From a virus (taxonomy: Duplodnaviria > Heunggongvirae > Uroviricota > Caudoviricetes): DNA of 23,475 nt. This document shows, one piece after another, positions 2,856 through 23,475 of this stretch. The translations under genes and the position numbers were made by a program. Under the pieces are notes generated by a model. It made no database searches and was not told where the DNA came from. It worked only from the letters and a program-made list of their open reading frames with translations. Numbering within the stretch: the first letter of the stretch is position 1; each line of letters starts with the position of its first letter. Location: the IMG/VR virus record IMGVR_UViG_2529293249_000015, positions 1 to 23,475 of that record; one strand, written 5' to 3'.

Positions 2856-3074
2856 TCAAAGAGAGAGCGCCACCTGTCCTGATTTCATTGGATGCGGCTG
2901 AACCGGATTTGACTCTTTTGGCGTTGCAATCGAACGAACAAAAGTTTCATGGGTAACAAAAGTATGGCTGCAGTTAATGTTCTGGCACTGGTTGTAACGC
3001 TCTTTGGTCAATGAAGATACCTGAAAACTGCTGCGAGTATGGGCGGCACTTCCACACAGTGGGCAAATCATCAT
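2856..3074 (-). CDS. ogr: Ogr-family zinc-finger late transcription activator
   Basis: About 72 aa from MMICPLCGSAAHTRSS with C-x2-C ... C-x4-C pattern (CPLC ... CQNINC), resembling P2 Ogr; located directly after D as in P2. The tracked ORF extends 11 codons upstream; I take the MMICPLC start. Confidence 0.85.
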   Translation of the reverse strand: MMICPLCGSAAHTRSSFQVSSLTKERYNQCQNINCSHTFVTHETFVRSIATPKESNPVQPHPMKSGQVALSL

Positions 3075-3164
3075 TTTTCGAGTTCTCCTCATTTTTGCTA
3101 AATTCACAATAATGATACCGCATTATTCCATTTTGAAAACTTAAAAGTTCTCCATTGCGAAGAA

Positions 3165-4265
3165 TCATTCAATTTCGAAATCATCAATCTTCACTTCAAG
3201 CTCCAGACTGGTCGTAAAACCGTTATCCGGGCTGACAGTATGCGTCAGGGTGGTAATGGTCCATTCCGCATCATCTATCGGCTGTTTAAAGCCACTGACC
3301 TTCACAGGCATTTCCGTGTAGAGATCTGCCCGACCTTCTGCCAGTTGTAGCGAGAATGACGCAACGCCGCGTTGCAGGCGTTCCCACTGCATTTTCGCCG
3401 CTCGTTCGGCGTTGCTCCGGTTGGCATAAGTGCGATTAAGTACCAGCACGTTTTCATCCGTACCCACCAGGTAATCGCCCTGCTTCGCTTCCGGCTCTTT
3501 CTTCTGCTTCTTAGTCCTGCGCTTACGCTTCACCGTGGTGCTTTCTTTCTTCTCGGGTTCGCGGGTATGCAACCAGCTGGCAATTACGCCCGTGTAGGCT
3601 CCGCGATCTGCCAGGGTAAAGCGGTGACTGTCGCCGTCCTTGCGTGTGATAGTGATAACCGGTAGTGGTTTACCGCTGGCGCTTTTGCCCTGTCCCTGCC
3701 GAATGAATAACAGATTGCCATTTTTCACCGACGCAATAGCACCGTACTGGCGCGCCAGCCGCATCAAAAAACTGCCGTCACTTTCATTGGTCTGGTCTAT
3801 ATGATCCACGGGTTTATTCGACAGGTCTTTACCCAGTGCCATCTTCAGTTTGTGCCGCGCGGCTATTTCCTTCACCACTTCCCCGACTGTGGTCTTGTGC
3901 CACGACTTTTCACGGCGGGTATTCAGCGTTTCACGAAAATCAGCACTTCGCGCCCGGATAGTCAGGCGATCCGGCGCGCCAGTGTGTTCAATCTCGTCCA
4001 CCGTGAATGCCCCTTTCGGGAAAAGCGGCTGCCCCTTCCAGCCCAGCGCCAGCGTAATGACCGCACCACGGCGCGGCAGCGCGATTTTTCTGTCGGCGTC
4101 GTCCAGTTCCAGATCAAGCTGGTCTGCTTCAAAGCCCCGGTTATCCGTCAACGTCAGCCCCATCAGGCGGTTGTCCAGCACAGTGGTGATATCCCTGCCC
4201 TCAATACTGATGCTGAATGCCGGAGTTTTGTTGCCTTTCTTAAGCAGTTCAGAGCTGAAATTCAC
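3165..4265 (-). CDS. D: tail protein D (late control gene D homologue)
   Basis: 366-aa ORF, GTG start overlapping the U stop; position and size match P2 gpD. Confidence 0.85.
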   Translation of the reverse strand: MNFSSELLKKGNKTPAFSISIEGRDITTVLDNRLMGLTLTDNRGFEADQLDLELDDADRKIALPRRGAVITLALGWKGQPLFPKGAFTVDEIEHTGAPDRLTIRARSADFRETLNTRREKSWHKTTVGEVVKEIAARHKLKMALGKDLSNKPVDHIDQTNESDGSFLMRLARQYGAIASVKNGNLLFIRQGQGKSASGKPLPVITITRKDGDSHRFTLADRGAYTGVIASWLHTREPEKKESTTVKRKRRTKKQKKEPEAKQGDYLVGTDENVLVLNRTYANRSNAERAAKMQWERLQRGVASFSLQLAEGRADLYTEMPVKVSGFKQPIDDAEWTITTLTHTVSPDNGFTTSLELEVKIDDFEIE

Positions 4266-10002: not shown

Positions 10003-10078
10003 AGTGGCGAACCTCCTGATTGGATTAGGCTTCGCCCTATGTTGAAGTGATTGTGCCTGACAAACAGCTAAGCGCAGT

Positions 10079-10096
10079 TGTACCGTTATTCACACA
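10079..10096 (-). promoter_or_regulatory. candidate Ogr-dependent late promoter element upstream of FI (P_F)
   Basis: TGT-N12-ACA dyad (coding strand TGTGTGAATAACGGTACA), then 34 nt, then CAACAT, then about 40 nt to the FI start codon. Confidence 0.45.
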
Positions 10097-10144: not shown

Positions 10145-10711
10145 TCAGGGGGATTCATTACTCTTATTTGCCGGAAATTTTCTATAAATTGTGGAAACAC
10201 CCACATCAAAAATCAGTGCAATACGCTGTCTTGATTCTCCGCCCTCGAGTAAGCGTCCAATCTGTGCCCACTGTTCGGTGGTCAACTTAGGACGGCGTCC
10301 ACCTACTCTGCCTTTATCACGAGCTGCAGCCAGCCCCGCCCTGGTACGTTCAACTATCAGTTCGCGTTCCATTTCAGCTAGGGCCCCCATGACATGAAAA
10401 AAGAAACGGCCCATTGGGGTGCTGGTATCAATACTGTCAGTCAGGCTTCGGAAATTCACGCCACACTGACGCAACTCTTCTATCAGCGTAACAAGATGCC
10501 GCATACTGCGCCCCAACCTGTCCAGCTTCCAGACAACCAGAGTGTCTCCTGCCGATAGTGTCCTGAGCAGTTTTTTAAGCCCCGGTCTGTCGGACTTAGT
10601 GCCACTGATTTTATCCTCAAAAATCCGCTCACATCCCGCGCAGTTCAGTGCATTACGTTGCAAATCGGTGTTCTGGTCATTTGTTGACACGCGTACATAG
10701 CCAATAAGCAT
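10145..10711 (-). CDS. serine-recombinase DNA invertase (Gin/Hin/Cin/Pin family)
   Basis: 188 aa from MLIGYVRVSTNDQNTDLQRNAL with catalytic Ser motif and C-terminal helix-turn-helix; near-identical in stretches to Gin/Hin. The tracked ORF has a 15-codon upstream extension; the ATG at 10711 has an RBS. Confidence 0.9.
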   Translation of the reverse strand: MLIGYVRVSTNDQNTDLQRNALNCAGCERIFEDKISGTKSDRPGLKKLLRTLSAGDTLVVWKLDRLGRSMRHLVTLIEELRQCGVNFRSLTDSIDTSTPMGRFFFHVMGALAEMERELIVERTRAGLAAARDKGRVGGRRPKLTTEQWAQIGRLLEGGESRQRIALIFDVGVSTIYRKFPANKSNESP

Positions 10712-10778
10712 GATCAATCCCCTGAATAAAAACCGTGGATGATGCCAGTTAGCCATTATCTCTGCATTTTCATAAACG

Positions 10779-10809
10779 TTGGTTTGGGAGAAGCGGCAAA
10801 ACGGAATGT
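10779..10809. repeat. left inverted repeat of invertible segment (recombination site)
   Basis: 31-bp sequence ttggtttgggagaagcggcaaaacggaatgt, a perfect reverse-complement match to 12293..12323. Confidence 0.8.
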
Positions 10810-11134
10810 GGGAACAGGTTCAGGTCAGATACCGGATATGAGTAGCTTTGCATCAGCACTCTCTTCGAGTGGCTACCAGAAATTACCTTCTGGACTAATT
10901 ATTCAGTGGGGGGCGGCTGTTGCTGGAATTGGCAGCACTGGGGGTACAGGAAATGTAGTCTCATTCCCTGTTGCATTCCCCAGATATTGCGCCCAAATAA
11001 TTACATCTTACGATAATGGAAGCTCGTCAATCATTGCTGGTGCAGCAGGAAACCAAACTACCACTCAATTTCTTTTACGTTGTGGTGCAACCGGTGGTAG
11101 TTATAACTTCCGCTGGTTAGCCGTGGGGTATTAA
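10781..11134 (+). other. alternative tail-fibre C-terminal (receptor-binding) cassette, currently unexpressed orientation
   Basis: Begins in frame at the repeat with GLGEAAKRNVG, the same residues found at the H crossover point, and continues as a different fibre tip (...QIPDMSSFASALSSSGYQKLPSGLIIQWG...). Confidence 0.7.
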
Positions 11135-11136
11135 TT

Positions 11137-11580
11137 ATGGATAACTACTATTTTTCACCTTCGACTTTGGCATTTTATCCTGAAGATCTCATGTTGTTAT
11201 ATGAAGCAGCAGGAACTTTACCTGATGATATTATTTCTGTGCCACATGAAATATTTGCTACTTATTCAGGAGAGCCACCACGAGGAAAAAAGCGAGGTAC
11301 TACAGAAGATGGGCAGCCCACCTGGAGTAATCTGCCGCCTTTAAGTCATGAGGAAGAAGTTGAGGTTGCGGACGCCCAAAGACAGTTTCGTATTGATGAG
11401 GCGAACGACTACATGAATAGTAAGCAATGGCCAGGTAAAGCCGCTATTGGTCGTCTGAAAGGCGAGGAACTGGCGCAATATAATTCGTGGCTGGATTATC
11501 TGGACGCACTGGAGCTGGTCGATACTTCCGGTGCGCCAGATATTGAATGGCCTACACCTCCGGTAACTCAGGCCAGCTAA
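11137..11580 (+). CDS. tail-fibre assembly protein, alternative-orientation copy
   Basis: 147-aa ORF ending in the conserved tail-fibre-assembly motif VDTSGAPDIEWPTPP; follows the alternative fibre tip. Confidence 0.8.
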   Translation: MDNYYFSPSTLAFYPEDLMLLYEAAGTLPDDIISVPHEIFATYSGEPPRGKKRGTTEDGQPTWSNLPPLSHEEEVEVADAQRQFRIDEANDYMNSKQWPGKAAIGRLKGEELAQYNSWLDYLDALELVDTSGAPDIEWPTPPVTQAS

Positions 11581-15795: not shown

Positions 15796-15841
15796 AGGGA
15801 AAGGTTGCCATCAGGGGAAGAAAGGCGGCAGTGCTGCAACT

Positions 15842-15859
15842 TGTATCAGTGCTGATACA
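15842..15859 (-). promoter_or_regulatory. perfect palindrome TGTATCAG-TG-CTGATACA upstream of V (candidate P_V Ogr site)
   Basis: Fits TGT-N12-ACA; followed 34 nt later by CAACCT, as at the FI and O sites; only 46 nt separate the element from the V ATG. Confidence 0.4.
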
Positions 15860-20837: not shown

Positions 20838-21671
20838 TCAGCAATTGGTCAGAGTGTCAGCGGGGGCGTTACCGCCTGTTGCACGCTGGCGGTAGTCCTG
20901 GCGGCTGTCTTCATGACTTAGCTTATTCACCAGTTCGTTAAAGGCGGTCTGCTGTGCCTGCAGGGCAGTCTCCAGCTCAGACAGACGTTCTTCCTGCTCA
21001 GACAGGGATTTTTCGGTGCGTGCGCTCAGGTTCTGCTGCTCAGTGGCGACCAGCTCCACGGCCTTATGCACATCAGAGAACCGGGCGTCATCGGACTGCT
21101 CTTTTTTGGTGAACAGCGCCGTGACACGGGCAAACAGGGACGGTTTGTCATCCTGGATTTCTTCCAGTTCGATCACCGTTTCCTCTGCAGCGGTAAAGAG
21201 ATTGGCAGGATTCTGCTTGCGGTTTGCCAGCGGGTTATGGGCTGCACTGGCGCTGAATGTCAGCATTTCAGTGCCCAGACTGGCAGGGTCATCAGTGGCA
21301 GCCAGGCCGACCAGGTAGGCTTTGCCCGTATCAGCGAACTTCGGGCTGACTTCCATAGAGGTGAATAATTTCTGGCCTTTTTTCACCAGCTCCACCAGGG
21401 ACTCCGTTGGCTCAACGTCGGCATACAGCGCCATCTTGCCTGCCAGCGGACCTTCCGTGATTTCTTCAGCAAACAGCGCCGTCACCTTGCCGTAGCGGTT
21501 AAAGGTGCTGTCCGGCAGATAAGACTTGATGTGCTCAAGGTTAATCAGCGCGGTGTACACCGTCGGGTTGTAGCTGGCTGCCATCTGTTCAAGCCATTCA
21601 CGCTGGATTTCGCGTCCGTCGGTGGTGGCACCTTCCACCCCGATGCGAAAACGCTTTACTTTCACTGTCAT
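20838..21671 (-). CDS. O: capsid scaffolding protein O
   Basis: 277-aa ORF (MTVKVKRFRIGVEGATTDGREI) with acidic, coiled-coil-like C-terminal half; P2 gpO-like; GGAG RBS. Confidence 0.9.
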   Translation of the reverse strand: MTVKVKRFRIGVEGATTDGREIQREWLEQMAASYNPTVYTALINLEHIKSYLPDSTFNRYGKVTALFAEEITEGPLAGKMALYADVEPTESLVELVKKGQKLFTSMEVSPKFADTGKAYLVGLAATDDPASLGTEMLTFSASAAHNPLANRKQNPANLFTAAEETVIELEEIQDDKPSLFARVTALFTKKEQSDDARFSDVHKAVELVATEQQNLSARTEKSLSEQEERLSELETALQAQQTAFNELVNKLSHEDSRQDYRQRATGGNAPADTLTNC

Positions 21672-21749
21672 GAGCCGTGCTCCGTTAGAAAAAACTTACT
21701 GGAGCCTTATGGTTGCGGTGATAGGGGCAGTGAAACAATGCGCGGTATT

Positions 21750-21767
21750 TGTACCGACAACCACACA
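21750..21767 (-). promoter_or_regulatory. candidate Ogr-dependent late promoter element in the O-P intergenic region (P_O, possibly shared with P_P)
   Basis: TGT-N12-ACA dyad (minus-strand reading TGTGTGGTTGTCGGTACA), then 34 nt, then CAACCA, about 78 nt before the O ATG; shares TGTGTG-N6-CGGTACA with the FI site. Confidence 0.45.
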
Positions 21768-21813
21768 AACCGCAGGCGGGGAAAGCCTTCATTCAAGGCT
21801 GTAGGTTTGTTCC

Positions 21814-23475
21814 ATGAACACCACACTGACACCCGCAGATCTCGATCCCCGTCGGCAGGCCATGCTGCTGTACTTTCAGGGATACCGCGTAGCCCGCATT
21901 GCTGAAATGCTGGGCGAGAAAGTTGCAACCGTTCACAGCTGGAAAAAACGCGACAAGTGGGGTGACTATGGGCCGCTGGATCAGATGCAGCTCACCACCG
22001 CCGCACGCTACTGCCAGCTCATTATGAAGGAGCACAAAGAAGGGAAAGATTTCAAAGAGATTGACCTGCTGGCGCGCCAGTCGGAACGCCACGCGCGGAT
22101 CGGCAAGTTTAACAATGGCGGCAACGAAGCCGACTTAAACCCTAACGTCGCCAACCGCAACAAAGGCCCGCGCCGTCAGCCGGAAAAGAATGTTTTCACC
22201 GATGAGCAGATTGAGAAGCTGGAAGAAATCTTCCATTCCTCCATGTTCAACTACCAGCGCCACTGGTGGGAAGCCGGAAAAACCAACCGCATCCGCAACC
22301 TGCTGAAGTCACGCCAGATCGGCGCGACCTTTTACTTTGCCCGTGAAGCCCTGATTGACGCTCTGCTTACCGGACGTAACCAGATTTTCCTTTCCGCCAG
22401 CAAGGCACAGGCCCACGTCTTTAAGCAGTACATCATCGACTTCGCTAAAGAAGTGGAGGTGGAGCTGAAAGGCGATCCGATGGTGCTTCCTAACGGGGCC
22501 ACGCTTTACTTCCTCGGCACCAATGCCCGCACGGCCCAGAGTTATCACGGCAACCTGTATCTGGATGAATATTTCTGGATACCGAAATTCCAGGAGCTGC
22601 GCAAAGTGGCTTCCGGTATGGCTATTCACAAAAAATGGCGACAGACCTATTTTTCCACGCCATCCAGCCTGACACACAGTGCTTATCCGTTCTGGTCCGG
22701 TGCGCTGTTCAACCGTGGGCGCAACAAAGCCGATAAGGTGGACATCGACCTGTCCCACAGCAATCTGGCCCCCGGCCTGCTGTGCGCAGACGGACAATAC
22801 CGCCAGATAGTCACCGTGGAAGATGCGGTGCGCGGCGGCTGTAACCTGTTCGACCTTGACCAGTTGCGCATGGAATACAGCCCGGACGAATACCAGAACC
22901 TGCTGATGTGTGAGTTCGTGGACGATCTCGCGTCCGTGTTCCCGCTCAGCGAACTGCAGGCGTGCATGGTGGACAGCTGGGAAGTCTGGACCGACTTTCA
23001 TGCACTGGCCCTGCGCCCGTTTGGCTGGCGCGAAGTGTGGATCGGTTATGACCCGGCAAAAGGTACGCAGAACGGCGACAGTGCCGGATGCGTGGTGGTG
23101 GCTCCGCCAGCCGTACCGGGCGGTAAATTCCGCATTCTTGAGCGTCACCAGTGGCGCGGGATGGACTTCCGCGCTCAGGCTGACGCCATCAAAAAACTGA
23201 CCGAACAGTACAACGTGACTTATATCGGTATCGACTCAACCGGCGTTGGTCACGGGGTTTACGAGAACGTGAAAGCATTCTTTCCTGCCGTCCGGGAGTT
23301 TGTCTACAACCCCAACGTTAAAAACGCCCTGGTGCTCAAGGCCTACGACATTATCAGCCACCGCCGTCTGGAGTTTGACGCCGGGCACACCGACATTGCG
23401 CAATCATTTATGGCAATCCGTCGCGCTACCACCGCCAGCGGCAACCGCCCGACCTATGAAGCCAGCCGCAGCGAA
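21814..23475 (+). CDS. P: terminase large (ATPase) subunit P, 5' partial at window end
   Basis: Open frame from ATG 21814 to the window end with no stop (554 codons, hand-translated: MNTTLTPADLDPRRQAMLLYFQGYRVARIAEML...). Absent from the supplied ORF track only because it has no stop codon in the window. Divergent from O as in P2. Confidence 0.9.
   Translation, partial: MNTTLTPADLDPRRQAMLLYFQGYRVARIAEMLGEKVATVHSWKKRDKWGDYGPLDQMQLTTAARYCQLIMKEHKEGKDFKEIDLLARQSERHARIGKFNNGGNEADLNPNVANRNKGPRRQPEKNVFTDEQIEKLEEIFHSSMFNYQRHWWEAGKTNRIRNLLKSRQIGATFYFAREALIDALLTGRNQIFLSASKAQAHVFKQYIIDFAKEVEVELKGDPMVLPNGATLYFLGTNARTAQSYHGNLYLDEYFWIPKFQELRKVASGMAIHKKWRQTYFSTPSSLTHSAYPFWSGALFNRGRNKADKVDIDLSHSNLAPGLLCADGQYRQIVTVEDAVRGGCNLFDLDQLRMEYSPDEYQNLLMCEFVDDLASVFPLSELQACMVDSWEVWTDFHALALRPFGWREVWIGYDPAKGTQNGDSAGCVVVAPPAVPGGKFRILERHQWRGMDFRAQADAIKKLTEQYNVTYIGIDSTGVGHGVYENVKAFFPAVREFVYNPNVKNALVLKAYDIISHRRLEFDAGHTDIAQSFMAIRRATTASGNRPTYEASRSE

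Follow-up and report, generated by a model that had tools for sequence, protein, structure and literature searches.

A probable shared activator site for the divergent O and P late promoters of a P2-like prophage, with a predicted leaderless terminase mRNA

The O–P region and its setting in the prophage

The window, by which we mean the whole analysed stretch of 23,475 nt, comprises the late region of a P2-like (Peduoviridae) prophage. Its right-hand part holds two divergent genes: O, which encodes the capsid scaffold/protease (20838–21671, minus strand; Pfam Phage_GPO, E 3.7e-113), and P, which encodes the terminase large subunit (21814–23475, plus strand; Pfam Terminase_5, Terminase_6N and Terminase_6C) and is truncated by the window end. 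The P product (gpP) is 64% identical to gpP of P2. The O–P intergenic region measures 142 nt, compared with 173 nt in P2. Over about 1 kb around the dyad described below, the DNA is 98–99% identical to Escherichia phage 500465-1 (Wadgaonvirus), to Cartapus (Elveevirus) and to many Klebsiella prophages. NC_049342 and NC_070909 are examples of phages with an identity above 98%.

The left end of the window is host DNA, with an Asp-Al_Ex/TrkA_C transporter gene (935–2620) followed by the sRNA gene rybB (2700–2778; Rfam, 105 bits). A gene for a zinc-finger activator of the Ogr/Delta family (2856–3107, minus strand; Pfam PF04606, E 8.8e-22) comes immediately after rybB, and the prophage junction (att) therefore appears to lie adjacent to the rybB 3′ end. 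The true start of the activator gene is probably an internal codon of this open reading frame. Further into the prophage, a serine invertase gene (Resolvase and HTH_7 domains; 10145–10756, minus strand) adjoins a tail-fibre C-terminus and an assembly gene, both of which, within 10145–11580, lie on the strand opposite to H and G. The segment 10145–11580 looks like an invertible host-range segment of the Gin/Cin type.

TGT-N12-ACA at about −55 is the binding site of the activators Ogr, B and Delta, which act via the alpha subunit of RNA polymerase. A pattern scan placed a predicted binding site of this type, the perfect TGT-N12-ACA dyad TGTACCGACAACCACACA, between O and P at 21750–21767 (centre 21758.5), where extended arms of the form TTTGT-N12-ACAAA span 21748–21769. 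Taken together with the gene annotation, the scan showed that the P/O, V and FI late operons are each preceded by a dyad. The V dyad (15842–15859) is centred 55.5 nt from the V ATG (15795), as in P. The FI dyad (10079–10096), located directly beside the serine invertase gene, is centred 85.5 nt from the FI ATG (10002), which implies that the FI operon has a leader. In the preliminary description of this DNA, the O–P dyad lay at a distance of 78 nt from the ATG of O (21671, minus strand) and of 46 nt from that of P (21814), with the V dyad likewise 46 nt from its own ATG; all three distances are correct. The same description had also equated the O-side distance with the FI geometry, which does not hold, the distance from the FI dyad to the FI ATG being 76 nt.

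Across the whole window, TGT-N12-ACA is not enriched: the count of eight matches compares with an expectation of 6.0 and was attained in 28 of 100 shuffles. Three of the eight matches lie upstream of late operons at P2-like distances. As the bare motif is not enriched, the case for function depends on position and conservation. Conservation was assessed in a close viral set of 78 contigs, corresponding to 45 distinct intergenic sequences, and in a bacterial set of 80 loci, each from a different species, with gpP identities of 69–100%. Together with the window, the bacterial loci make 81, with 75 distinct 90-mers around the P start. A perfect TGT-N12-ACA is centred exactly 55.5 nt from the P ATG in 51 of these 75 distinct sequences, and another three carry a perfect dyad at 56.5 or 57.5 nt. 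The TGT and ACA halves (indeed TTGT and ACAA) are invariant in relatives, and the 12 inner nucleotides are variable. The lack of window-wide enrichment would be in keeping with a functionless chance match between O and P. We regard the probability of such a match as negligible, since the position of the dyad is conserved exactly over dozens of species around a variable inner sequence, and since the dyad is homologous to the annotated sites of P2 and 186.

The O–P dyad had been described as the single perfect one in the interval. This is true of elements wholly inside it, but a second perfect TGT-N12-ACA, TGTTCCATGAACACCACA (21808–21825), overlaps the P ATG, with its centre at +3 of the predicted P start. 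We rejected it as a functional site because it is perfect in only 11 of the 75 relatives. Codon 4 of P, which reads ACA in 38 of 75, forms its 3′ half; the 5′ half is variable among the relatives (mostly GGC, TGG or TGT). This sequence pattern is most likely explained by chance. No second conserved dyad was found in the O–P interval among the relatives.

The P promoter and the P start codon

The P start codon is the ATG at 21814–21816 (plus strand). The N-terminal motif DPRRQA (residues 11–16) is aligned with gpP of P2, and many relatives have Leu as residue 17; this identifies the ATG at 21814 as the true start and led us to reject Met17 (21862) as an alternative. In RefSeq relatives, the CDS is annotated from the equivalent of the same ATG.

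A −10-like hexamer of the P promoter, TAGGTT, is located at 21802–21807 (plus strand) and starts 43.5 nt from the dyad centre, as does TAGCCT in P2. It occupies −12 to −7 relative to the P ATG, and its TAG lies in frame four codons upstream, both as previously noted. The distance from the dyad centre to the A of the P ATG is 55.5 nt, and this A (21814) is the seventh nucleotide after the hexamer. Since the hexamer has the same offset as in P2, the A of the ATG stands at the position of the mapped +1 of P2 (a G), where transcription is predicted to start. At least 90% of the 75 distinct sequences have C at −1, and a pyrimidine at −1 followed by a purine at +1 is a favoured context for transcription starts.

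All 75 distinct sequences show TAnnnT followed by 6–7 nt and then ATG, with the hexamer at −12 to −7 in 60 of them and at −13 to −8 in the remaining 15. Hexamer variants at P include TATGTT, TATTTT, TAATCT, TAGTCT, TAGGCT and TAGCCT; T1, A2 and T6 are thus kept, and AGG is not. ATG is the P start codon in 75 of 75, and a Shine–Dalgarno (SD) core, defined as at least 4 nt of AGGAGG, was found at −15 to −4 of this ATG in none. Changes in the length of the P N-terminus are codon indels within the gene and leave the distance between ATG and dyad unaffected.

P had been thought to lack an SD apart from a weak AAGG. The AAGG is present 16–19 nt upstream of the P ATG, and the lack of an SD very nearly stands; the reservation concerns AGGT within TAGGTT (21803–21806), which is 7 nt from the ATG, a usable spacing, and may form 4 nt of pairing with the anti-SD. 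Relatives carry TATGTT, TATTTT or TAATCT at the position of TAGGTT, so this pairing is not conserved. Given a longer transcript, AGGT could serve as a weak SD. Its spacing is the point in favour of a P transcript that originates within or beyond O, antisense to it, and that is translated by weak AAGG or AGGT pairing or with no SD, the distance between dyad and ATG then being a by-product. We consider such a transcript improbable. AGG is lost in most relatives while TAnnnT and its spacing are retained, there is no consensus promoter upstream, and the two classes of hexamer–ATG spacing that are set out below would be left unexplained. A scan of 21550–21950 found no consensus sigma-70-type promoter, as expected of activator-dependent promoters, and no Rfam match was found around the O–P region.

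The sequence around the P start has two further features. An inverted repeat, AGCCTT-N5-AAGGCT (21784–21800), lies between the dyad and the P −10 hexamer; the corresponding hairpin was rejected as an element, given its lack of conservation in relatives and its position upstream of both predicted starts. The early P codons (21814–21840, AUGAACACCACACUGACACCC) are CA-rich, and leaderless mRNAs in E. coli are reported to be translated better when CA repeats follow the start.

The choice of start site by RNA polymerase can vary by 1–2 nt, and a P leader of 1–2 nt has to be allowed for. More generally, the dyad may be shared while the P transcript starts at about 21808–21813, in which case the mRNA would have a very short leader and would not be strictly leaderless. 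This would fit both the variation of about 1 nt in start-site selection and the 15 of 75 relatives in which the hexamer lies 7 nt from the ATG, so that the P2-equivalent +1 is the C before the ATG. However, the conservation of C(−1)A(+1) speaks for initiation at the A, and P2 V also has a 7-nt gap, yet starts at the A of its ATG. A leader of 1–5 nt would contain no SD and would itself behave as a leaderless mRNA. We therefore hold a start within 21808–21813 to be unlikely, though worth keeping in mind. Sequence conservation and the analogy with mapped P2 starts suggest that the 5′ end of the P mRNA is probably the A of its AUG, give or take 1 nt.

The O promoter and a probable shared activator site

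On the O side, the transcript is predicted to start at 21703 (minus strand), 55.5 nt from the dyad centre as in the P2 geometry, which results in a 32-nt leader. A Shine–Dalgarno sequence of O, GGAG, was read from the sequence at 21680–21683 (minus strand), and the SD core is present in 48 of 49 relatives. The hexamer CAACCA (21710–21715, minus strand) occupies −12 to −7 of the predicted O start and has the same dyad offset as GAAACT of P2; either CAAACA or CAACCA occurs in 38 of the 49 distinct relatives. Its assignment as the −10 element of O is a weak one. A −35-like TTGTTT of the O promoter (21733–21738, minus strand) is at least 90% conserved in the dyad-anchored alignment. Predicted O leaders of the relatives are 26–55 nt long and their intergenic regions 136–170 nt; the indels among close relatives are located in the O leader, downstream of the predicted O start. 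The distance between the predicted starts at 21703 and 21814 is 111 bp, the same as between the P2 starts at 3016 and 3127.

At the 43.5-nt dyad offset, the O, V and FI promoters of the window carry CAACCA, CAACCT and CAACAT, respectively (V hexamer around 15801–15807, FI hexamer around 10039–10044; both coordinates are approximate), and P alone carries TAGGTT. Two flavours of −10-like element, TAGGTT and the CAAC type, occur in one phage.

The preliminary description had also considered that P might use a degenerate activator site of its own near 21719–21737, from which a leadered transcript would arise near 21780. This stretch is indeed conserved among close relatives, but its conservation is accounted for by the core promoter of O on the other (minus) strand. 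No conserved dyad, with up to one mismatch allowed, is present at 21719–21737, and no separate, well-conserved activator site for P was found among the relatives. A start near 21780 would lack a TAnnnT hexamer at about 21770, and a leader beginning there would hold no SD. As P2 and 186 also have one site only, we judge a second activator site for P to be very improbable.

The pP and pO promoters of P2 were reportedly described by Christie and Calendar in 1983 and 1985 as divergent late promoters with one Ogr site. The GenBank record of P2 (AF063097) annotates one 'activator binding site; pO, pP promoters' at 3057–3087. It gives a P transcript start at 3016 and a P ATG at 2993, corresponding to a 23-nt leader, and an O start at 3127 with the O ATG at 3167. 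The P2 site holds TGG-N12-ACA centred at 3071.5, 55.5 nt from each mapped start. Comparison of the window with the P–O region of P2 thus revealed a single site in both, with identical offsets of 55.5 and 43.5 nt. The paper on Smp131 gives the same coordinates for its PP′ and PO′ (PMC3931495). The record of 186 (NC_001317) contains one B-protein site, annotated for 'activation of pV and p12 promoters', and the P homologue of this phage (orf12) has a 23-nt, SD-bearing leader.

Taken on its own, the assignment of 21750–21767 as an Ogr-type activator site that the P and O late promoters share is very likely correct. One activator site shared by P and O is already known, as the P2 and 186 records each annotate one. 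The prophage's own Ogr-type zinc-finger protein would bind the single dyad at 21750–21767 and, because the dyad is palindromic and lies midway between the promoters, would most likely activate sigma-70 RNA polymerase both leftward and rightward. The O operon would be transcribed leftward from near 21703 with a 32-nt leader that contains GGAG. Rightward, transcription of the P–Q operon would begin at the A of the P ATG (21814), such that the terminase mRNA would lack a 5′ untranslated region and undergo leaderless translation.

The preliminary proposal that the palindrome serves both promoters and that the P transcript is leaderless is supported by the one-site annotation of P2 and 186, by the P2-like geometry, and by the spacing, the ATG and the missing SD in 75 of 75 sequences. 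Activator binding at the dyad, the two transcript starts and leaderless translation are the parts of this scheme that we infer. As a whole explanation, the combination of a shared site, both transcript starts and a leaderless P is probable. The use of an SD-bearing P leader by the best-studied relatives, P2 and 186, counts against a leaderless P. So does the inefficiency of leaderless translation in E. coli, where AUG is required for efficient leaderless initiation. A leaderless P is not mentioned in the literature that we found on late promoters or leaderless transcription in P2-like phages.

P architectures in the Peduoviridae and comparison with known systems

Relatives of the P2/186/PSP3 type (gpP at least 82% identical to P2; n = 42 distinct) all carry TAGCCTTGCCnnG followed by a 22–23-nt leader with a CGAGG-type SD, and a P leader of 22–23 nt was found only in phages of this type. 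Pectobacterium prophages have GTAGCCTTGCCGTC directly followed by the ATG, versus GTAGCCTTGCCGTG-(22 nt)-ATG in P2, which places the indel exactly at +1. The form with the ATG at +1 is also found in Erwinia ENT90, Aeromonas LPM4, Ralstonia RSY1 and Pseudomonas phiCTX; the dyads of LPM4, RSY1 and phiCTX (1961–1979 in phiCTX) are TGT-N13-ACA, not N12. In phiCTX, RSY1 and LPM4, the P ATG lies 6–7 nt after an xAnnnT hexamer and about 57 nt from the dyad centre.

In the phages examined, hexamer–ATG spacing falls into two classes, either 6–7 nt without an SD or about 28–30 nt with one, and the sole exception is Yersinia phage vB_YenM_42.18. In this phage (about 1385–1480), a perfect dyad and TAGCCT precede 48 nt of leader, which lead up to the annotated P ATG, include a mini-ORF of 13 codons and lack a clear SD. 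Two spacing classes are what selection for either leaderless or canonical initiation would produce.

Compared with the Pectobacterium type, P2, 186 and PSP3 look as though their 22–23-nt SD leader had been inserted exactly at +1. The P2 leader (2991–3018) is flanked by an 8-nt direct repeat, GTATTCAT, a sequence feature that hints at an origin by duplication. We are slightly inclined to view leaderless P mRNA as the majority, and probably ancestral, state of the Peduoviridae, those of Enterobacterales, Aeromonas, Pseudomonas and Ralstonia included, and the leader of P2, 186 and PSP3 as a derived insertion at +1. If this is true, most P2-like phages carry two leaderless late operons, P–Q and the one that begins with V. 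This would perhaps keep the expression of terminase and baseplate hub low, or couple it to the state of the ribosome pool.

The shared activator site is textbook P2 biology, and its value here is that it confirms the late-promoter annotation in the prophage. If the P operon is leaderless in most P2-like phages, this prophage family, which is large and widespread, would offer a natural paired comparison for the study of leaderless translation and of the overlap between promoter and start codon: the same promoter and the same gene, with a 23-nt SD leader in P2 and 186 or without it in the clade of the window. There is also a warning here for gene callers, which should neither penalise nor shift the P start codon for its missing SD.

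Among characterised promoters, P2 pP/pO is similar to the O–P region of the window in having one dyad between divergent P and O that is centred 55.5 nt from both starts (predicted in the window). The hexamer on the P side, TAGCCT in P2 and TAGGTT in the window, begins 43.5 nt from the centre in both, the O leader bears an SD, and the gene for an Ogr-family activator adjoins the tail genes. Unlike in the window, the dyad of P2 is imperfect (TGG-N12-ACA), and in P2 a 23-nt leader that carries a GAGG SD separates +1 from the P ATG; this segment is missing in the window. In phage 186, too, the annotation gives both divergent promoters a single activator site and the gene order is the same; the 23-nt, SD-bearing leader on orf12 is a difference.

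Leaderless mRNAs are rare in enterobacteria, and gene V of P2 is among the few classic cases. P2 is cited among the few known leaderless genes in E. coli (PMC4633059), and in the P2 record the annotated V transcript start is the first base of the CDS. The leaderless P is a variant of this known case. V and P share an activator site about 55–57 nt upstream of an ATG that is also the transcript start (predicted for P in the window), and both have a weak xAnnnT hexamer 6–7 nt before the ATG, with no SD; in P2 V the hexamer is CAATCT, 7 nt before the ATG. In contrast to P, V belongs to the baseplate operon, and its leaderless start was mapped experimentally in P2, whereas that of P in the window is a prediction.

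In the Ralstonia phages RSA1/RSY1 and in phiCTX, the late promoters are of the TGTTGT-N13-ACAACA type, in a published description that contains no discussion of leaderless transcripts (PMC5694545). As in the window, the divergent P and O homologues flank one dyad, and the P side consists of TAGCGT or CAGCAT, 6–7 nt and the ATG; unlike in the window, the spacer is 13 nt instead of 12, and the activators are distant. Finally, the lambda cI mRNA from PRM, the classic leaderless transcript, resembles the P mRNA of the window in arising from an activator-dependent promoter with the A of its AUG at +1 (predicted for P), although the activator, the position of its site and the gene function are unrelated.
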